Shown one piece after another: positions 25,940 to 64,000 of a stretch of 64,000 nucleotides of DNA. Each line of letters opens with the position of its first letter. Position 1 is the stretch's first letter. The translations under genes were made by a program, and so were the position numbers. The notes under the pieces are model-generated. The model was not told the origin of the DNA and did no database searches. It saw only the letters and a program-made list of their open reading frames with translations. This DNA is from Squalus acanthias (lineage: Eukaryota), in NCBI GenBank assembly GCA_030390025.1, contig CM059431.1, positions 104,100,001 to 104,164,000 on the forward strand, given 5' to 3'.

Positions 25940-27152
25940 AAAGAAAAGACTTGCATTTCTATAGCGCCTTTCACAACCTCAGGACATCCCAAAGCACTTT
26001 ACAACCAATGAACTACTTTTGAAGTGTGGTCATTCGTGTAATGTAGGAAACACGGCAATTAAGCTCCCAAAAACAGTACTGTGATAATGACCAGATAATC
26101 TATTTTAGTGATGTTGGATTGAGGGATATATATCAGCCAGGAACCAGGGATATCTCCCCTGCTCTTCTTCAAAATAGCACCAGAGTATCTTTTAACTTCC
26201 ATTCAGAGGTTAGAGAGGGCCACGGTTTAACATCTCATCTGAAAGGCGGCATCTCTGACAGTGCAGCACTCCGTCAGTACTGCCTCTCCCACAGTGCAGC
26301 ACTCCCTCAGTACTGCCCCTCCCACAGTGCAGCACTCCCTCAGTACTGCCCCTCCCACAGTGCAGCACTCCCTCAGTACTGCCCCTCCCACAGTGCAGCA
26401 CTCCCTCAGTACTGCCCCTCCCACAGTGCAGCACTCCCTCAGTACTGCCCCTCCCACAGTGCAGCACTCCCTCAGTACTGCCCCTCAAAGTGCAGCACTC
26501 CCTCAGTAATGCCCCTCTGACAGTGCAGCACTCCCTCAGTACTGCCCCTCTGACAGTGCAGCACTCCCTCAGTACTGCCCCTCCAAAAGTGCAGCACTCC
26601 CTCAGTACTGCCCCTCCCACAGTGCGGCACTCCCTCAGTACTGCCCCTCTGACAGTGCAGCGCTCCTTCAGTACTGCCCCTCCGACAGTGCAGCACTCCC
26701 TCAGTACTGCCGCTCCGACAGTGCAACGCTCCCTCAGTACTGCCCCTCCAACAGTGCGGCGCTCCCTCAGTACTGCCCCTCCGACAGTGCAGTGTCCCTC
26801 AGTATTGACCCTCCGACAGTGCGGTGCTCCCTCAGTGCTGCCCCTCCGACAGTGCAGCGCTCCCTCAGTGCTGCCCCTCCGACAGTGCAGCGCTCCCTCA
26901 GTACTGCCCCTCCGACAGTGCAGTGCTCCCTCAGTACTGCCCCTCCGACAGTGCGGTGCTCCCTCAGTGCTGCCCCTCCGACAGTGCAGCGCTCCCTCAG
27001 TGCTGCCCCTCTGACAGTGCAGCGCTCCCTCAGTATTGCACTGGGAGTGCCAGCCTAGATTTTGTGCTGAAGTTCCATGGAGTGGGACTTGAACCAACAA
27101 TCATTGCGGGATTCAAAGGTGAGAGTGCTACCAACTGAGCCAAGGCTGACAC
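25940..27152 (-). mobile_element. Deu-domain SINE containing a minisatellite expansion
   Basis: SINE tail at about 25940, head at about 27150; array at 26255-27040. Confidence 0.85.
26255..27040. repeat. 33-bp minisatellite, about 24 copies
   Basis: Unit ACAGTGCAGCACTCCCTCAGTACTGCCCCTCC(C/G), which gives 11-aa repeats in the ORF track. Confidence 0.95.
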
Positions 27153-29857: not shown

Positions 29858-29999
29858 ATTAAGTAATTAGGAGTGTAACAGCCATTCAGTGTGCACTATG
29901 TACACTGGCATGTGTACTCTAACTGCAAATTTGTAAATCCTAGTCGAAGCTGAGCGTATTTGTAGGCTAAAGAATAAATATTTTCTTTGTAATGTTTTT

Positions 30000-30870
30000 G
30001 CCTCTCCTCTGAGTCAGAACATTGTGGGTTCAAGTCCCACTCCAGAGACTTGAGCACAAAAATATCGGCTGACACTCCAGTGCAGTACTGAGGGAGTGCT
30101 GCACTGTCAGAGGGGCAGTACTGAGGGAGTGCGGCACTGTCGGAGGGGCAGTACTGAGAGAGCACTGCACTGTCGGAGGGGCAGTACTGAGGGAGTGCTG
30201 CACTGTCAGAGGGGCAGTACTGAGGGAGTGCTGCACTGTCAGAGGGGCGGTACTGAGGGAGCGCCGCACTGTCAGAGGGGTAGTACTGAGGGAGCGCCGC
30301 ACTGTCGGAGGGGCAGTACTGAGGGAGAGCTGCACTGTCAGAGGGGCAGTAGTGAGGGAGCGCTGCACTGTCGGAGGGGCAGTACTGAGGGAGCGCTGCA
30401 CTGTCGGAGGGTCAGTACTGAGGGAGCGCTGCACTGTCGGTGGGGCGGTACTGAGGGAGTGCTGCACTGTCGGAGGAGCAGTACTGAGGGAGCGCCGCAC
30501 TGTCAGAGGAGGAGTACTGAGGGAGTGCTGCACTGTCGAAGGTGCCATCTTTCGGATGAGACATTAAACCGAGGCCCCGTTTGCCCTCTCAGGTGGACAT
30601 AAAAGATCCCACGGCACATTTTCGAAGAAGAGCTGGGGAGTTCTCCCCGGTGTCCTGGACCAATATTTATCCCTCAATCAGCATCACTAAAACAGATTAT
30701 CTGGTCATTATGTCATTGCTGTTTGTGGGAGCTTGCTGTGTGTAAATTGGCTGCTGCGTTTCCTACATTACAACAGTGACTACACTTCAAAAGTACTTCA
30801 TTGGCTGTAAAGCGCTTTGGGACATCCAGTGGTCGTGAAAGGCGCTATATAAATGTAAGTTTTTCTTTTG
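30000..30870 (+). mobile_element. Deu-domain SINE with an internal 33-bp minisatellite (about 30083-30540, about 14 copies)
   Basis: Unit GCAGTACTGAGGGAGTGCTGCACTGTCGGAGGG sits at the same SINE position as the 26-kb array. Confidence 0.9.
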
Positions 30871-38215: not shown

Positions 38216-40036
38216 AAGTCAGACGGGTAGGATTATGAGTGGCACATTGGGTTCGTGTCACCTGAGCTCAACTTCGATCTAATCAGATCAAGGGGGGGCT
38301 TCACACAAAATTCCACCCCTCAGTTCTCCAGTATAGTAGAGGTAGGAGTTCATTATAACTTTGATGGATTAACAGAGGACTGAAAATGTGCCACTTGCTA
38401 AGTTTATTTTGTGTCAATCTATTTACTTTTGCTTTACTCTTAAGGTGCAAGTCTTTGCAATGTATGAGTGACTGCCATAAAGGAAGAAAAGTTTCACTGA
38501 GTTTTAACAGTCACTCCACACGAGTAAGCAGCAAAGTCATTGGTGGACATTCCTAGAAGAGAAGTGCCACTTCTATTCCAGGAATGCCCGCCTTGAAGAA
38601 GTCCTGCTCTTCTCTCTGACGGGATTTCCGTTCGTCATTGCTTTCAGTTTCCCTTCTCGTGTTTGATCAGGTATCTGCCAAGACTCGTTTTCACAGCCAC
38701 ATCTCTTTCCTCAGCAACTGTCTCCGGTTCTGACTTATTCCACATGGATTCCAACTGAGATTCCACCCTTCGTGCTTCGGATCCACCCAGGATTACAGAT
38801 ATCTCTGGGATATTCAGCGTTCCTCGAACTACTGCTCTCGCCGCATCCTGAGATCCATGCTCAACGCCATGCGTCGCCTCAAGTAATTGGTTGGTGTTGG
38901 ATGAGACATGATTTTGTTGAGAAGTACAGTTAAATAAACTTTTTAAAAATTTGTTCATGGTATGTGGGCATCGCTGGCAAGGCCTCCTCCTTGAACCACT
39001 GAAGTCCATGTGGTGAAGATACTCCCACAGTGCCGTTAGGGAGGGAGTTCCAGGATTTTGACCCAGCGATGATGAAGGAACGCCGATATATTTCCAAATC
39101 AGGATGGTGTGTGACTTGGAGGTGAACTTGGAGGTGGTGGTGTTCCCATGCGCCTGCTACCCTTGTCGTTCTAGGTGGTAGAGATCGTGGGTTTGGGAGG
39201 TACTGCTGAAGAAGCCTTAGCGAGTTGCTGCAGTGCATCTTATAGATGTTACATATTGCAGCCACGGTGCACCAGTGGTGGAGGGAGTGAATGTTTAAGG
39301 TGGTGGATGGGGTGCCAATCAAGCGGGCTGTTTAGTCCTGGATGGTGTAGGGGGTGGTGGTTTGTGTCAAGTTCGCCTCTGACTTCTGAACGGTTTGAAT
39401 CGCTCCCACTCCCTTGGTTCTAGACCTTGGACTTATTTGGGGGTTGTGATAAAAAGTGCAGCAGACAACTGGTTTTGATGCAAGAACTTTGATCTTTATT
39501 TAAGAAAGTAAAACACAACACAAAGGGATAAAAATTCACTTGGTTGCGCCTCCCGTTAGCGCCTTAAGAGGGCGCTAATGGGGCGTTAAGCCGCTAACGC
39601 CCGGGCGCAGCGCTGTTTGCGCCGCTCGAGAACTTAACTTGAGATTGTGCGGCGGCGCTAAAACTTACTGCTGCGACCACCTGCGCGCGCAGATTGTGAC
39701 GTCATTCCATGGTGCAACGCCCTTGGGGCGCCCCAGAGCGGAAATTGAGTGGCGCCCCCTGCCTTACCGCCTAGCGCTTCCAACGACCGGAAGACTGGAA
39801 CGTTATCAATCGGTGTGGGGCTGGGGGGGGCGCTATTTAAAGGGGGCCTCTTCCTGTCTTTTTCTGTGGTCGACATTTATGCACCACTCGTTCTGAGAGA
39901 GAGAGAGAGATTCGGAGAGAGAGAGAGAGAGACTTCTACATTGACTCAATGCTTTGTGAGGTAGTTTTGCCTAGTTCATCCTAACTTTGTTGCTACTTTA
40001 GTTGCTGTACCTCATTACTTTTCTGGCAAAGAGAAT

Positions 40037-41197
40037 ATGGGGGCTGCAGTGATTGGGGGCGTCGTCCTGCTCCAGCTGAATCGGAGGATACCGAGACGCA
40101 GACAGAGAGTGGCAATGATGGCCAGACGGAGGAGGGCCATCAGGCGCATGTACAGGAGAGCTTACCCTCCCAGGGTATATCGTGAACAGCTCTCCTACAT
40201 CCATATGTCCGAGGAGCTGTGTTTGCGAAGGCTGCGATTCAGCAAGGAGGTGGTCACTGAGCTCTGCCACCTGCTGCAGCCAGATCTGCAGCCTCAGCTG
40301 AGGTCCAGGACGTCTCTGTCGGTGGCAGTGAAGGTCACAGTGGCTTTGAACTTCTACGCCACTGGCTCATTCCAAGCTGCTGTTGGGGACCTCGCCAATA
40401 TCTCCCAGTTTGCGGTGCATCGCTGCATCCGGCAGGTCACCAATGCCCTCTTCAGAAGGAGACGAGACTTCATCTCTTTCCCTATGACCCCAGACAAGCA
40501 GCGTGACCGTGCTCTGGGCTTTGCGAGGGTAGCGGGCTTCCCCATGGTGCAGGGCGCCATTGACTGCACGCATGTGGCTTTGCGTGCTCCGCGAGAGAAT
40601 GCAGAGGAATTCAGGAACAGAAAGGGGTTCCATTCCTTGAATGTGCAGTTGGTCTGTGACCACAGACAGCTGATACTCGCTGTCAATGCCCACTATCCGG
40701 GCAGCTGCCACGATGCTTTCATCCTGCGCCAGACTACTGTGGCAGAAGTTTTCGAGGCACCGCATCAGCCAGTTGGTTGGCTTCTGGGGGACAAGGGGTA
40801 CGCATTGAGCACCTGGCTGATGACACCGCTCCGTACGCCAAACACCCCTGCTGAGCTGCGGTACAATGAAAGCCATCAAGCAACCAGGAACATTATTGAG
40901 CGCACAATCGGCGTGCTGAAACAACGGTTCCGCTGTCTGGACCATTCCGGAGGAGCCCTGCAGTACTCGCCTGAGCAAGTTTCGAACTTCGTAGTCGTGT
41001 GCTGCATGTTGCACAACATGGCAATCCTCAGGACCCAGCCAATGCCACCAGGCCTTGTAGCACCACCAGAGGAGGAGGAGGAAGAGGAGGAACAGGACGA
41101 GGACGATGATCATCAGCAGCACCAAGGCGGGAGGGCGGCCCACAATGGTCAAACTGCAAGGGCCGTCCGTCAACGACTAATAGCAAGCCACTTCTAG
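40037..41197 (+). CDS. Harbinger DDE transposase (HARBI1-family nuclease), 386 aa, open
   Basis: Motifs LNFYATGSFQ, GAIDCTHV, NRKGFHSLNVQLVCD, YPGSCHDAFIL, WLLGDKGY, RNIIERTIGVLKQRFRCL, CCMLHN; acidic tail. TATA-like CTATTTAAA at about 39833. Confidence 0.95.
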   Translation: MGAAVIGGVVLLQLNRRIPRRRQRVAMMARRRRAIRRMYRRAYPPRVYREQLSYIHMSEELCLRRLRFSKEVVTELCHLLQPDLQPQLRSRTSLSVAVKVTVALNFYATGSFQAAVGDLANISQFAVHRCIRQVTNALFRRRRDFISFPMTPDKQRDRALGFARVAGFPMVQGAIDCTHVALRAPRENAEEFRNRKGFHSLNVQLVCDHRQLILAVNAHYPGSCHDAFILRQTTVAEVFEAPHQPVGWLLGDKGYALSTWLMTPLRTPNTPAELRYNESHQATRNIIERTIGVLKQRFRCLDHSGGALQYSPEQVSNFVVVCCMLHNMAILRTQPMPPGLVAPPEEEEEEEEQDEDDDHQQHQGGRAAHNGQTARAVRQRLIASHF

Positions 41198-41491
41198 GGC
41201 CCCTGCCATTGCTACAAACACTAATCAACCCAGCACGCAACCCCGAAGCCTGCCAAGGCACCAATAATTCCAACCACCAGCCATGTATATTTTGAATACA
41301 GAAACTTATTTATTTTACAAACTCTGTGTGTGTCAATTCCTCATGACAAACTCATAGAAATAAACACAAAAAAACAGTCAATAACATAACTGGTTCTCAC
41401 AACCTGGAGATAATGTCCAAAACACTAAACAAAAGTTGGACCATGAACCTCGGCCTTTAATAAAAAAATGACCAGCATTTTGGCACACCTC

Positions 41492-43368
41492 CTACTTTTT
41501 GCCCTTCGAGGGTGATCTCCTTCCCTTGCGCACTTCCCCCCTTCTAACCCTACTGCTCCTCCGTAATGGGACCTCAGTGGCTGCAGCAAGGCTGGTGGAA
41601 GGCTGCTGCTCGTCAGACCCTGACACTGCAGATGCCCCTGAAGGACGGCCTCGACCACTTCTGGGCCTGGAGGGCCCGGCTGCAGACTGCACCAACTCTG
41701 CATGGGCGGCAGCAGTCTGTCCTACAGGCGGTGGCAAGTGCAGTGGAGAAGTGACAGTGTTGGCAGCAGGAATGCTGTCATCGTGAGAGAGGCCAGCAAC
41801 TCCCTGCTCGCCCGACACACTGGCACTCCCACGGGGCAGCACTTCAGCATCCGGAGCAATTTGCCGGAGAACAGATTGCTGGCCTGCTGCGGCGCGGTGA
41901 CAGCCCCGGGGACATGTGCACGAACCATCGAGGTTGGCAGCAGTCTGTGCTCGCGTGGCCTCCATCTGAGTCTGTATGAGAGCAGTCAGAGGTGGGATCA
42001 CGGCAGCCAGTGACTGAATTGCAGCACTAAGCGTTAGTGTGGCATCCGCCTGTGCTACAGCGAAGTGCTCCACACTCCTTGCCAGTGACTCAATGCAATC
42101 GGGCACCCTTCCCACTGCACCCATGAGCTCAGTGTGCATGCCCACCGCCTGGGTGTTCATTTCTGCAATCAGCCGCTCCTCCTCTGCGTCCATTGCAGTA
42201 GGAGTGTCTGGCATACTCTCCCTCTGGGGAGAAGGCCCCCGTTCTTCCCTACCCCCCCCATGGCGTTGCTGCAGCCCGCTGGGTCCTGGAGCTTCACCAT
42301 CATCAGCCCCTTCCCCCCTGCTCCCCTCCGGGGAAGGCGTGTTCCCAGTGTGGGCATGGGCTTCCTCGGGAGAGGGTGGCACTGATGCTCTGGCTTCCTC
42401 TTCCTCCTCAGCTGCAGCATCACTCCCAGTGGCAGCTTCAGGGCCCGTCTCCTCAGCTGGTGAATCACCATCTGAAAGCAGGGAGGTACAAGAGTGGCTT
42501 TAGCGTGAGGACAGGGTGGCAGTAAGGGAGGAATAAGTGCAGCGAGTTAGCAAGTTGGATTGAAAGTGTCAAAGGCTGGTATTGTGAGGGACAAGTGGAA
42601 GGACAGAGGACAAAAAGGTGATGACCTTACCATTGCTGTCCACAACGGGGTCGGCGTCTCCAGTGGCGACGGGACCGATCACCCGGCTTGCCACAATCCT
42701 GTGGACGCGCTCCTCCAGATCGCTGAGGGGTTGCAGCTGAAGCCGCCCTCCACCTGTCCGTTGCTGCTGTCTCCGATTATGAGCCAGCTTAGCCTGCAAG
42801 AAAAAGGACAGCATCTGAGTAAATATACAGCCATGGTCTTGCCTGATGTGCCTCCCATAGGTGAATAGCCCTTACAATATACAGCCATGGTCTTGCCTGA
42901 TGTGCCTTCCATAGATGAATAGCCCTTACAATATACAGCCATGGTCTTGCCTGATGTGCCTCCCATAGGTGAATAGCCCTTACTGTATGCAAAGTGTGGA
43001 ATGTGTGTGTGTGTTTGATGAAAGGGCCATCGGTGTTGGATGAGTTTTGTGCATTGGGGTTTTAAGACCCTCTGGCCATAGAGTGAGGTTGAGATGGAGG
43101 GATGGAGAGGTATTGAGAAAAAGCCACTCACCCTGACGACCCGAGTGAGGTCGTTGAACTTTTTGCGGCATTGAGTATGGGTCCTGGGCACCATGCTCCT
43201 GGAGGAGACGCTCTGAGCCACCTCCCTCCACACTCTTCTGAACTCGCGTGGCAAAGGCCTCCTGCCACTCTCAGGGAACAGCATACATCGTCTGCGCTCC
43301 ACTGCGTCAACCAGAGCATCCAAGGCCCGCTCGGTGAAGCGATGAGTGCGTTCTCTCACCCTCTCCAT
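41492..43368 (-). CDS. Harbinger Myb/SANT-like DNA-binding protein; exons 43368-43132, 42793-42631, 42471-41492; 459 aa
   Basis: Exon 1 RFTERALDALVDAV..LF..W.EVA..RTHTQCRKKFNDL. Junctions AGG|GTGAGT, TTGCAG|GCT, G|GTAAGG and TTTCAG|AT give 237+163+980=1380 nt in frame. Exon 2 has the RTGGG motif; the C-terminus is basic. Confidence 0.85.
42822..42983. repeat. 54-bp tandem repeat x3 in intron 1 of the Myb gene
   Basis: AATATACAGCCATGGTCTTGCCTGATGTGCCTCCCATAGGTGAATAGCCCTTAC three times. Confidence 0.95.
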
Positions 43369-45525
43369 GCTTGGCAGCAAAATGGATTACAGGTCTCTCC
43401 AGGCTGAGATTCAAGGCTGCAATGAGCAGGGTGTGGCTGGGGAGCAAGTGCCCCCCCCCGCTTTAAGAAGTGGCCGGCGCCAGTGTGTCTGTGTTCCCTC
43501 ACTAACTGGCAGCAGCTGCGCTGTGCTCGTGCGCTGAGTTAGCGCCTCACTCCTTGACCTTTGCGCCTTAAGAGAGGCGTGCAACGCCTGCTTTAGCGCT
43601 CCACTCACCTCCCGGGGCGGTAAAAGTGAAGTTTCCTGTCAGTGCCGATAATTAGCGCCAGGCGCTAATATTTGCGTCCGGACGATATTTGCGCCCCAAA
43701 TGGGGCGCGACCTAATTTCTACCCCAAACACTCTTATCACTCTAAAGGTGGGGAACACTTCGGTACAAGCGAGGGAAATAACATTAAAAGAATACTTCAC
43801 CCCTCCCAATCCCATTTTACTAGCTAAGTTGGGCTGTGGAGGACCCAGGGATAATGGTCACCAAACGAATCCTTGACAGTTGAGAGTTAGGGTTTAGAGT
43901 CTTTTGAATAAAAGTTTCGTAAGGCCCTTGTTGCCGCGAGGTGTCCGATGGTCACTGAAGCGGTCGCTCTGGTCTCTTCTTGCGTGTCGGCCTACTTCTG
44001 GAGCTGTTGGCCTTCTTTATTGAACTTCTTTCTGTTGCCCCCTCGCCTTGTTGAACTGTCTTCTTTAGAGCTGTGGAACTGCCTTCTTGCAGAACTGTGG
44101 AACTGCCTTCTGCCGGACTGCTTGCTGAATTCCTTGCTGCTGTGTAACTGTTGAACTGCTTGTCTCCTTGAACTGCCGTGTAACTCTACTGGAGAACTCG
44201 AACTTGAACTGTTAAGAACGGGCCTTTAATTATACCCATTGAAGCTTCCTTATCATTGTAAGATTTTGGAGGGCTCGTCAACAGTAACGATTTTAATAAG
44301 TGTCAAATGGCTTTTGGGATGGCTTGCGTCCTGTCGATCTCCTTGGTTGATTACAGGTGATTGGTTTTGTGTTTGGTTTTCTAGGCTGGACTCGGTCTTT
44401 CTATAGAATGGGCCTGAGTGGTTTTTATTATGCATGTTTCTGATGGGCCCTGTAATCGGTTTTGATGGGGCCTGTATTTTGGGTGGGACTGTCTTCTCCC
44501 AGGGTCTATTGTTCAAATGTTAATGTCTGCTGGGGCTTGAGTGAGGTCATCCCGGTTCCCCAGACAGTGTAATTAACTGCAATAACCAAACTGCTTTTAC
44601 AGAGGTCGAACCCATCTCCTTGTCCCTTTACAGGCCCAGACATGGTTTTAAAATGCCAAAACTTGTTTTTTGGTCTTAAATTCCTTATGTTAGGCCCAAA
44701 TGCATTTTTATCACTCTGAGGTAGTTCCAAATTCCTTTTTCCTTAGGTTTTGGAGATCTGTAAATTTTGGAAACCTTACAATGGTGTCGAGCTTCTTGAG
44801 TGCTGTTGGAGCTGCACTCATCTAGGCAAGTGGAAACTATTCCATCACACTCCTTACTTGTGCCTTGTAGATGGTGGAAAGGCTTTGGGGAGTCAGGAGG
44901 TGAGACACTCACCGCAGAATACCTAGCCTCTGACCTGCTCTTGCAGCCACAGTATTTATGTGGCCAGTCCAGTTAAGTTTCTGATGGAATGATGTCTTGA
45001 AAATTACAAAGTTAGATAGCATCAATCTGCAATGTTGAAAAGCCTATTCGACATTACCCAAGAGACAACAAGAGATTATTCTGCATTGATGGGAGAACTG
45101 ACTGTGACATCTAAACCTTTACTGAGAGATCATCTCTCCATTAACATGAATTTTATTTTTGATGCCTCACGCTTTAGCTAAATCATATCTGCTGAAATGA
45201 TAGCTGTCTGCTGCTGCATAGCACAGGCTACTCTCCTACAGGTACTAAACCTGATCATCATCCAGCTGTTGAACATTTTATTGAAGGGCTGGAAATATAA
45301 AGTAAGGATATTTATGTGGCTGTCAGGAACCGTGCCCCACAGTTAGTCATTTTTGGCTACAGTAAGAACGTGGCCAGATAATATCAACAGTTAAACACAG
45401 AATAAAATCAGAATTTAGGCAGTCAGCTGGAACATTCTTATGTAGGGAGTTTTTTTAAATCGCAGTATGCAGTTCCGAGTAAACAGAATACTTACTGCTA
45501 TTTGATGGTAAGTCTTTGTTTTTTA

Positions 45526-54319: not shown

Positions 54320-55510
54320 GTCATAGAGTCATAACGGCACAGAAGGAGGCCATTCAGCCCATCGAGTCCGTGCCGGCTCTCTGTAGAGCAATCCAGTCAG
54401 TCCCATTCCCCCACTCTATCCCCGTAGCCCTGCAAGTTTATTTCCCTCAAGTGCCTATCCAGTCTCCCCTTGAAAACATTGAGTGTTTCCGCTTCCACCA
54501 CTTCCGTCGGCAGCGAGTTCTAAGTCCTCACCACTCGCTGCGTAAAAAAGTTTTTTCTCACAGCCCCCCCGTATCTCTTGCCCAAAACCTTAAATCTGTG
54601 TCCCCTAGTCCTTGTACCATCAACTAGTGGGAACAGCCTTTCCCCGTCTAGCCTATCCAAACCCGTCATAATCTTGTACACCTCGATCCTTTGCTCTAAT
54701 GAAAACAAATCCAGCTTCTTCAACCTGTCCTTGTAGCTTAGATCCCCCACCCCCGGAACCATTCTGGTAAATCTCCTCTGCACCCTCTCAAGGGCCTTCA
54801 CATCCTTCCTAAAGTGTGGTGACCAGAACTGGACGCAATACTCCAGTTGTGGCCTAACCAGCGCTTTATAAAAGTTCAGCATAAATTTCTCTACTTTTGT
54901 ACTCAATACCTCTATTTATGAATCATGATACGGAGATGCCGGCGTTGGACTGGGGTGGACAAAAATGAGAAGTCGCACAACACCAGGTTATAGTCCAACA
55001 GTTTTATTTAAATTTTCGAGCTTTCGGAGCTGCTGCTCCTTCGTCAGGTAGAGGTACAGTGAGGGAATCTAATACACAGTATATATACACAGAGAGCGAC
55101 TTGACTGCAGAGATACAATCCATCAGGAAGGCACTACATCAAAGAAACATCAGAGCACAGCCAAGACAATGAGGTGGGTCACAGGGGGTCCAACGTGTCA
55201 AACGTTAGACCCCCTGTGACCCACCTCATTGTCTTGGCTGTGCTCTGATGTTTCTTTGATGTAGTGCCTTCCTGATGGATTGTATCTCTGCAGTCAAGTC
55301 GCTCTCTGTGTATATATACTGTGTATTAGATTCCCTCACTGTACCTCTACCTGACGAAGGAGCAGCAGCTCCGAAAGCTCGTAATTTTAAATAAAACTGT
55401 TGGACTATAACCTGGTGTTGTGCGACTTCTCATTTCTATTTATGAAACCCAAGATCCCATATGCTTTGCTAACCACACTCTCAATATCTCCCGCCACCTT
55501 CAGGGACCTG
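54320..55510 (-). mobile_element. CR1 fragment split by a palindromic insert
   Basis: YKALVRPQLEYCVQFWSP..; CR1 resumes at 55435. Confidence 0.9.
54923..55434. mobile_element. Fold-back Penelope-type insertion (family A); hammerhead motifs at 55014-55051 (-) and 55347-55384 (+)
   Basis: 12-bp TSD TCTATTTATGAA; near-perfect arms of about 233 bp around the loop GTCAA (55197-55201). Confidence 0.9.
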
Positions 55511-57904: not shown

Positions 57905-58398
57905 TACTTAGTATCCTCCTGGACTGCTATTCAGACAGGCTGGATATGGGTGGGGTGGGGAGTGAGGTTTGAGAAAGATAAGGAAGACCTTGCATTTATA
58001 TAGTACCTTTCATGACCTCAGGATGTCCACCAGTGTTTTATAGCCATTGAAGTACCTTTGAAGTGTAGTCACTGTTGTAATGTAGGGAATTACCTCAATA
58101 AGTAGAGGAGATCCACTGGCCGCAGTCCCCTCCTGCAATTGTCTGGTATGGAGGGATAACACCTGTACAGCTTCTTTTGGATATGTGTGATACATGATCT
58201 TCAACTAAACTTTGCACATTTCTTTGCAAGTGGCAGTGTTAAAGAGCTGCCTCTATAGCTCACATCACTTCTCCTCTGTTAACTGATGACTTAGGTCTTG
58301 TTTCCAGATTTAACTCAGATTTCCTGTCCAATCTCTGATCATGAAGGTGAACATGGTGCAGAGGATAGGAATGTGTTCAAAGGGGAGTGGGGTAGGTG

Positions 58399-59120
58399 TT
58401 CCATGGGGAGAACAGATAGAGATATATGGGGAATGGAGATAGAGTTCCATGGGGAGAGGAGAAATAGTTCCATGGGGTGAGGAGAAAGAGCTCCATGGGG
58501 AATGGAGAAAGAGTTCCATGGGGAATGGAGAAAGAGTTCCATGGGGAATGGAGAAAGAGTTCCATGGGGTGAGGAGAAAGAGCTCCATGGGGAATGGAGA
58601 AAGAGTTCCATGGGGAATGGAGAAAGAGTTCCATGGGAATGGAGAAAGAGTTCCATGGGGAATGGAGAAAGAGTTTCATGGGGAAGGGAGAAAGAGTTTC
58701 ATGGAGAATGGAGAAAGAGTTCCACGGGGAATGGAAAAAGAGTTTCATGGGATGAGGAGAAAGAGTTCCATGGGGAGAGAAGAAAGAGTTCCACGGGGAA
58801 TGGAGAAAGAGTTCCATGGGGAGAGGAGAAAGAGTTCCATGGGGAGAGGAGAAAGAGTTCCATGGGGAGAGAAGAAAGAGTTCCACGGGGAATGGAGAAA
58901 GAGTTCCATGGGGAGAGGAGAAAGAGTTCCATGGGGAGAGGAGAAAGAGTTCCATGGGGAGAGGAGAAAGAGTTCCATGGGGAGAGGAGAAAGAGTTCCA
59001 TGGGGAATGGAGAAAGAGTTCCATGGGGAGAGGAGAAAGAGTTCCATGGGGAATGGAGAAAGAGTTCCATGGGGAATGGAGAAAGAGTTCCATGGGGAAT
59101 GGAGAAAGAGTTCCATGGGG
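58399..59120. repeat. 23-bp purine-rich minisatellite, about 31 copies
   Basis: Unit CCATGGGGA(AT/GA)GGAGAAAGAGTT. Confidence 0.95.
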
Positions 59121-60007
59121 ACTTGCTCACACTTAATTCTGAAGGTCGTGCCTCATCTAGAAATAGCAGCATTGGTCATGTTGGGATAGGTGACATTTGA
59201 TTCCTTTTGTAGAGGGTGGCATGTTTCAGTGTAAGATCCACACAAGGTATTTAAAGCTGGCTCCTGACCATTCAAAGGGGTAGAATTCCCATATTTATGT
59301 GGCATGTCCCGTATGACAGATACGCCCTCTGTTTTAGAGTAGTTGAGTTGGTCCCTGGATAATTAGCCAAACTCTTTAATACTTTGAAAGAGGCTGGACA
59401 GTGAGGGGGTTAAGTTAATCATGTATGCTGTCCGTATATTTTTTTTATTCGGTTCTCCTGCATGTACTCAGTGGATGCCTGGGTTCACTCTGACACATAT
59501 CACTAGAGGTTACTGCTGAGTATTTCCAGCATTTTCTGTTTTTATCACTGGAGATGCTATTGCCAGGGCAAGCAGGAAGGGTGATAGGCGCATTCCTATC
59601 CGGTCTCTCGGTGGAATGTGAATGCAAAGGACCTGAGTCCATTGGTGTACACTGTAGATGTGGGGTATGAGGGCAGGAATTTTAATCCACTTCCATGTGT
59701 CGCCAAAGGCTATTCTCTTGAGTGTGGTGGGGAGGAATTTCCACTCCAGAAGATCGAATTCCCTTGCTGCATCCAGGAAGGGTACCAGGGCAGGCATCTT
59801 GGTGTCATTACAATGGTGCACCACAATAAATAGCTGCCTGGTGTTGTCCATCAGGCAGCAGGCCCTTATGAGGCATGTTTGGTCTGGTGAACCAGCCCAG
59901 GGATGGCTGCATCTTGTCTGAAGACTTAGAATTTGGTCAATATTTTATAGTCAGCAAAAGGAGAAGCTAGATAAGTACAGGAAGGAGAAAGGAATAGAAG
60001 GCTATGT

Positions 60008-63898: not shown

Positions 63899-64000
63899 GG
63901 GGGAAAAATTCAGTTGGATTGCGCCTCTCGTTAGTGCCTTAAGAGGGCGCTAATGGGGCACAAAGCAACTAACGCCTGTGCGCACCGATCTTTGCGTCGC
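63899..64000 (+). mobile_element. Left end of a second copy or relative of the 39525 Harbinger, running off the window
   Basis: GGGGGAAAAATTCAGTTGGATTGCGCCTCTCGTTAGTGCCTTAAGAGGGCGCTAATGGGGC closely matches 39525-39585. Confidence 0.85.

Follow-up and report, generated by a model that had tools for sequence, protein, structure and literature searches.

The 64-kb window, the whole stretch of Squalus acanthias DNA analysed, contains a complete and unbroken two-gene Harbinger copy of 4,201 bp (39525–43725). It is probably an ORF-intact, full-length copy of an abundant elasmobranch Harbinger family (PHIS superfamily), which lies in an older LTR-like repeat and has been drifting since its insertion; the case for drift could miss membership of the copy in a small young sub-lineage. 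We regard it as a typical member of its family that may or may not be active at present, and probably not as a fresh insertion. An earlier sequence-only reading had proposed an intact, young and possibly active two-gene Harbinger. Identity, structure and open frames are borne out, whereas youth and activity are harder to sustain for this copy, given its divergence and the frequency with which such frames stay open by chance (see below).

The element is flanked by matched AAA triplets (39522–39524 and 43726–43728, forward strand). Two contigs of run X18, which represent paralogous empty sites, skip exactly 4,204 bp, corresponding to the element plus one AAA, and thus confirm the 3-bp target-site duplication (TSD) that had been read from the sequence. 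The 12-bp terminal inverted repeats (TIRs; left, 39525–39536, +; right, 43714–43725, −) both start with G and are identical at 10 of their first 12 bases, imperfect as already recognized. Their length is below the usual 25–50 bp (PMC9179366) and inside the range of 5–1042 bp (PMC4482050). Each subterminal region carries three exact copies of the 8-mer TTAGCGCC, at 39556, 39571 and 39654 on the left (39556–39661) and at 43539, 43652 and 43661 on the right (43539–43668). The two terminal 200-bp stretches thus hold six copies, against none in 63,500 bp scanned elsewhere in the window, and by analogy with zebrafish Harbinger3_DR they are likely to be Myb binding sites. The insertion splits a solo-LTR-like repeat (39346–44780, of which 1,231 bp belong to the repeat itself; TG...CA ends) that is bordered by a 4-bp ATGG duplication and is itself nested in a LINE-like repeat, both labels being assigned from shape and copies rather than from a repeat library. 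The repeated motif at both ends and this nesting are new relative to the sequence-only reading.

The transposase gene is a single exon on the forward strand (40037–41197), stop-free from the ATG at 40037 to the TAG at 41197, and encodes 386 aa as first reported. Pfam DDE_Tnp_4 (PF13359) matches it above the cut-off (E = 3e-39). Its GAID, GDKGY and IERT motifs point to D176, D252 and E288 as the putative catalytic triad; these residues are kept in 33, 34 and 22 of 40 aligned homologues, respectively, and all three in 19. Only two positions, S93 and T233, depart from residues common to at least 75% of the 40 homologues, and either residue also occurs in 4 of them. The predicted structure (pLDDT 88.6) has a DDE/RNase H fold, aligning with piggyBac (Z 10.2, rmsd 4.5, 230 aligned) and with Tn5 (Z 8.9, rmsd 5.8, 246 aligned). 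A PDB sequence search returned low-complexity or chance rows only and Foldseek returned nothing at E ≤ 0.001; no solved Harbinger transposase structure was found in these searches or in the fold comparisons.

The second gene lies on the minus strand, convergent with the transposase, and its three exons join through GT–AG sites into the 459-aa Myb/SANT frame that had been predicted. Exon 1 (43132–43368, 79 aa) contains the Myb/SANT domain (Myb_DNA-bind_5, PF13873, E = 2e-9), intron 1 (42794–43131) is 338 bp long, exon 2 spans 42631–42793, and intron 2 (42472–42630) measures 159 bp. Exon 3 (41492–42471) encodes an acidic linker, a predicted helical region and a basic C-terminus and ends with TAG. 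Exon 3 alone gave no homologue in a word-indexed search; homology came instead from full-length Myb relatives, and the spliced protein aligns with P0124 across residues 5–456 (37.5% identity, E = 2e-63). A 54-bp unit is present about three times inside intron 1 (42822–42991). The two genes share a 3′ region (41198–41491) with AATAAA motif matches at 41359 and 41459 (+) and at 41309–41314 (−).

The sequence-only reading had named the two splice junctions as a test in RNA, and they fared differently. The intron 2 joint (42471>42631) is present in contigs of the RNA-like runs X15 and X18 and absent in X2 and X16, so that splicing of intron 2 is supported at the family level. Of 34 joints 15 were listed, the intron 1 joint not being one of these, and two RNA-like contig records pass unspliced over its donor; intron 1 is a prediction from protein homology, junction 1 being spanned by 53 of 76 Myb relatives, 49 of them gap-free. 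In P0007, a model from the sawshark Pristiophorus japonicus, the counterparts of Myb exons 1 and 2 are joined at the identical junction. None of the listed runs holding element words is recorded as RNA. We also considered, and rejected, a compensated frameshift peculiar to this copy in exon 3, since contigs X16-13 and X18-22 cross this stretch without a gap.

The family was compared through contigs of four of 21 runs (X2, X15, X16 and X18). It is very abundant, with 58,174 contigs from run X2 alone aligning to it, contig depth not being equivalent to copy number. The copy differs from the family sequence in other samples by ∼ 0.5–1.7%, with 46 of 2,742 (X16), 34 of 1,925 (X15) and 41 of 1,600 (X18) bases differing in the listed contig pieces; these values are upper bounds, as the contigs come from other samples and mix subfamilies. 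In simulations, both frames stay stop-free with probabilities of 0.68, 0.46 and 0.25 at 0.5, 1 and 1.7% substitutions, figures that overstate chance survival because indels are left out. The open frames are most simply explained by chance survival in a slow-mutating genome, and the copy may therefore still encode working proteins even if it does not move at present. The earlier statement that CpGs are retained is literally true (observed/expected 0.56 in the element versus 0.47 in the remaining window). However, seven of 32 2-kb bins, one of which covers the left end of the element, also reach at least 0.56, so CpG retention is uninformative on age and we reject it as a marker of youth.

That the copy is young, autonomous and part of a sub-lineage still transposing today seems unlikely, though this reading has the strongest claim among the alternatives. 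Both frames, the splice sites, the subterminal motifs and the TSD are intact, the Harbinger is the youngest layer of a three-level nest, and in two studies the Myb transcripts of the family seem to have intron 2 removed. At position 43501 the base of the copy is in no X2 contig, which would fit an insertion lacking there, contigs showing presence only. Against youth, the copy carries a base unlike > 90% of family depth at six of 28 displayed sites, two of which alter Myb residues (G360 and P294); contigs lose rare variants, and alleles absent from them are therefore not proof of private mutations. The best holder runs contain just 0.81–0.86 of the sampled words, and the imperfect TIRs and the evidence on intron 1 count in the same direction. 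No contig joining flank and element was found among the 32 contig records listed.

Horizontal transfer of an element common to unrelated hosts would account for the runs labelled with eight different organisms that hold at least half of the sampled words, but we judge it highly improbable. The ratio of depth between an adjacent LINE piece and the element is 2.9 in X16 (organism H, the only such run tested) and 3.0 in X2, and this similarity is what one would expect if X16 sparsely covered the genome of this shark or of a related one; its contigs give zero cover of the LTR-like flanks. Close protein relatives are moreover spread across many elasmobranchs: sharks and rays supply 112 of the 120 transposase matches listed, none of these 120 being more than 71% identical. 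The closest among them are elasmobranch 'putative nuclease HARBI1' models, such as P0001, P0002 and P0007 of P. japonicus; these models are distinct families, and many are truncated or devoid of catalytic residues. Such names, the two open frames and the recurrent co-domestication of such pairs, as described in PMC9710019, could suggest a domesticated HARBI1/NAIF1-like gene pair under host selection. Yet these names were assigned automatically, a single sawshark annotation supplies 70 of the 120 listed matches, and fewer than half of the aligned homologues retain the complete acidic triad. TIRs, TSD, paralogous empty sites, the position inside another repeat and the great abundance of the family are the reverse of a single copy lacking TIRs and TSD, and domestication, already largely refuted, is the least credible of these explanations.

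The copy belongs to the PHIS/Harbinger superfamily in the broad sense (PMC9179366), having a DDE transposase, a Myb/SANT second ORF, a 3-bp TSD and TIRs. Han et al. (2015) (PMC4482050) take a TWA duplication as the defining trait of the PIF/Harbinger group, whose mean length is 4,124 bp. The shark copy resembles it in its two ORFs (DDE+HTH and Myb/SANT), in its short TIR starting with G and in length, but duplicated AAA at the single insertion examined. This triplet also departs from the CWG of the NuwaI group of the same authors, while the flanks resemble the CWG-centred target of zebrafish Harbinger3_DR. The latter is a reconstructed element (Sinzelle et al., 2008, as cited in PMC9710019, PMC3016246 and PMC8151067) and, as reported there, likewise combines a transposase, a Myb-like protein, a repeated subterminal motif and a 3-bp duplication. 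The shark flanks agree with AAACAC-CWG-GTCTTT at 8 of 12 positions, a post hoc comparison in which 365 of 63,985 window positions do equally well; the central triplet is AAA rather than CWG, and the subterminal motif is 8 bp long, against 9 bp reported for Harbinger3_DR. The likeness considered here is one of features, and the shark copy is natural and known from sequence alone, whereas the vertebrate Harbinger cited as tested is a reconstruction. Harbinger-Snek of sea kraits, compared by description only, is likewise abundant in a vertebrate host and includes naturally occurring copies in which both genes are fully intact (269 in L. colubrina and one in L. laticaudata); it is described as expressed, with non-autonomous derivatives, and as horizontally acquired (PMC8437027), unlike the shark element with its widespread elasmobranch relatives. 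The copy is a natural ORF-intact candidate system, as had been suggested, but ORF-intact vertebrate Harbingers were already described in that paper. Harbingers in sharks are likewise known: a 2022 paper (PMC9179366) raised the question of their presence in cartilaginous fishes, and papers on the whale shark and the grey reef shark report them. Our literature search, which covered mainly open-access main texts, found no paper on this copy's family.

By analogy with Harbinger3_DR, the spliced Myb protein would bind the TTAGCGCC repeats and also the transposase, and both would enter the nucleus. The transposase, through D176/D252/E288, would cleave the GGG ends, and insertion would follow with a 3-nt stagger, preferentially at flanks resembling the Harbinger3_DR target. 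It is doubtful, but conceivable, that the copy or near-identical siblings form a naturally working two-component shark Harbinger that transposes in vertebrate cells as found, with TTAGCGCC as a readable Myb site and flank-guided, triplet-tolerant targeting. If, in that case, its unshared sequence of at least 0.5% were truly private, function would have been kept for millions of generations, and slow-clock shark genomes would be a store of ready-made transposons. Of more modest value is a natural shark Harbinger fully annotated with exon structure, likely Myb motif and target flanks, and the caution that intact frames do not imply youth in slow-mutating genomes. The related left end noted earlier at 63899 is present (63899–64000, +, ended by the window edge) and, at 84.5% over 97 bp, belongs to a distinct Harbinger.

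The Harbinger element occupies 39525–43725 (4,201 bp) with AAA flanking each end, as the sequence-only reading had claimed; its termini are identical at 10 of 12 bases. Contigs from four of the 21 listed sequencing runs were aligned to 39200–44300. In X18 (an RNA-like run) two contigs pass over exactly 4,204 bp, which corresponds to the element and a single AAA; in X2 one empty-site joint reads a single AAA and then the right flank, and another skips 4,205 bp. The joints come from paralogues of the host repeat that lack the insertion, and because they skip the element and one AAA, they confirm the 3-bp target-site duplication (TSD). Together with the transposase, Myb ORF and terminal inverted repeat (TIR), this makes the element a member of the Harbinger/PHIS superfamily. 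The TSD triplets TWA and CWG are described as defining Harbinger groups (PMC4482050). AAA fits neither, so the element is placed at superfamily level only.

The single-exon transposase ORF runs on the forward strand from the ATG at 40037 to the TAG at 41197 (386 aa; DDE_Tnp_4, E 3e-39), and is open as claimed, with D176, D252 and E288 present. On their motifs we take these to be the putative catalytic triad. Of 40 homologues, 33, 34 and 22 respectively retain them (19 retain all three), and D226 is conserved too (28 of 40). Aligned with 40 homologues, the protein departs from a residue common to at least 75% at two positions only, S93 and T233, each found in four of the 40. The predicted structure is confident (pLDDT 88.6) and matches those of the DDE enzymes piggyBac (Z 10.2, rmsd 4.5, 230 aligned) and Tn5 (Z 8.9, rmsd 5.8, 246 aligned); residues ∼ 67–147 of the model resemble HTH domains. 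Sharks and rays are the named source of 112 of the best 120 homologues, among which identity is at most 71%; this indicates an elasmobranch host. Seventy of these 120 are ‘putative nuclease HARBI1’ models of one sawshark annotation, many truncated, and transposon copies seem to have heavily inflated HARBI1 annotation in sharks.

The Myb/SANT gene lies on the reverse strand and converges on the transposase gene across a 294 bp spacer with AATAAA on both strands. Its exons, 43368–43132 (Myb/SANT, PF13873, E 2e-9), 42793–42631 and 42471–41492, are separated by GT-AG introns of 338 and 159 bp, and joining them reproduces the open 459-aa frame claimed earlier. Junction 1 is crossed in alignment by 53 of 76 relatives (49 gap-free), and a sawshark gene model joins exons 1 and 2 at the identical point. 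Junction 2 is spanned into exon 3 by six of the 76; P0124, a full-length database relative, aligns to residues 5–456 (37.5%). A joint 42471>42631, exactly intron 2, was seen in one contig each of X15 and X18, two studies taken by guess to be RNA, with shorter sides of 18 and 29 letters, and is absent from the X2 and X16 contigs. Intron 2 is thus spliced as predicted in members of the family, a statement about the family and not about this copy. The 15 of 34 contig joints listed do not include that of intron 1, whose donor is read through unspliced by a single contig in each of the two RNA-like runs, so the support for this intron comes from homology. Within intron 1, a 54-bp unit occurs about three times (42822–42991), each with a donor-like GTGAA on the forward and GTAAG on the reverse strand. 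At ∼ 41880–41930 (reverse strand, residues ∼ 313–330) a shifted frame (F-x5-GL) fits homologues about as well as the main frame; family contigs are gap-free here, so this would, if real, be an old compensated frameshift common to the family.

The 8-mer TTAGCGCC has six exact copies within the two terminal 200-bp stretches and none in the remaining 63,500 bp examined; the sole further exact match is the second Harbinger left end (63899–64000). The Myb protein of Harbinger3_DR, a reconstructed zebrafish Harbinger, is reported to bind a 9-bp subterminal motif and to bring the transposase into the nucleus (PMC9710019), and by analogy TTAGCGCC is the likely Myb binding site here. The six bases each side of the TSD agree at 8/12 with the target given for Harbinger3_DR, AAACACCWGGTCTTT (PMC3016246), a post hoc comparison at one site; agreement is as good at 365 of 63,985 window positions.

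This family is clearly both abundant and diverse: 58,174 X2 contigs aligned on the 5.1-kb stretch (13,449 at 99% likeness or more, 21,775 at 95–99% and 22,950 at 90–95%), with depth throughout the element, although contig depth is not a copy number. Among the eight pieces listed per run, 46/2,742 (X16), 34/1,925 (X15) and 41/1,600 (X18) bases differ from this copy. The best holder runs contain 0.86 and 0.81 of its sampled 31-mers, or ∼ 0.5–0.7% unshared if differences are evenly spread. At six of 28 element sites, among 40 of 211 difference rows listed, this copy's base differs from that of > 90% of X2 depth, and two of these six differences change Myb residues (G360, P294). If 0.5% divergence were private, the epaulette shark mutation rate reported as 7e-10 per base per generation (CI 1.4–14.1e-10; PMC10587355) would give ∼ 7 million generations (3.5–36 million). 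Alternatively, the differences may be the signature of a small young sub-lineage, or contig simplification may have discarded them. Open frames also survive by chance: after random substitution at 0.5, 1 and 1.7%, both were stop-free in 68%, 46% and 25% of 2,000 trials, figures overstated because indels were ignored. The CpG o/e of the element (0.56, against 0.47 outside it) is reached or exceeded in 7 of 32 2-kb bins and is therefore uninformative on age. Of the young, possibly active copy proposed earlier, the intact two-gene Harbinger stands, whereas its youth and activity are weakly supported. We think it unlikely that the element is young and belongs to an active lineage; more probably it is an ORF-intact member of an abundant shark Harbinger family that has been drifting rather than newly inserted. 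Half or more of the sampled words occur in runs from eight coded organisms, a spread that horizontal transfer among hosts could produce; however, LINE piece depth relative to element depth is 2.9 in X16 (the single such run analysed) and 3.0 in X2, as would be expected if a similar shark genome had been thinly covered rather than if the element had moved horizontally.

By analogy, the element would work in the manner of Harbinger3_DR. Published accounts list PIF-Harbinger in the whale shark (PMC8455134), place it among the commonest DNA transposon types of the grey reef shark (PMC12498223) and give it as absent from the elephant shark (PMC9179366). The sea krait is credited with 269 natural, fully intact, expressed copies in one species (PMC8437027), and Han et al. 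report 88 potentially active PIF/Harbinger families by the identical two-ORF criterion (PMC4482050). A literature search, with Repbase, Dfam and supplements outside it, found no publication on this family.

The element sits in a repeat at 39346–44780 that has TG...CA ends, is flanked by a 4-bp duplication (ATGG), itself amounts to 1,231 bp and splits a LINE-like repeat whose copies elsewhere in the window run on across the site. From their shapes, the host is inferred to be solo-LTR-like and the outer repeat LINE-like. The three-level nest spans 39346–44780 and flanks 38950–39345 and 44781–44860, and the Harbinger, inserted in the LTR-like repeat that itself lies inside the LINE-like one, is its youngest layer.

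One X15 contig, joining 39973 to 43452, represents a non-autonomous derivative of roughly 0.7 kb with an internal deletion; in X2, X15 and X18, depth is also greater at the element ends than inside. Contig loose ends at 39862, 43388, 43448, 43497 and 43534 point to related elements whose interiors differ. The left end noted earlier at 63899 (to 64000, preceded by CAT) exists, but its closeness is limited; being only 84.5% identical over 97 bp, it is assigned to a different subfamily or family. Behind 43707, an X15 loose end appears to be its right-hand counterpart and suggests that the TIR of that Harbinger is longer. Elsewhere in the window are minisatellites of 23 and 33 bp (58277–59211, 26154–27113 and 29983–30642), the two 33-bp arrays being inverted relatives of one another, and a near-perfect hairpin (54963–55435) with 234-nt arms, 99% complementary and 5 nt apart.
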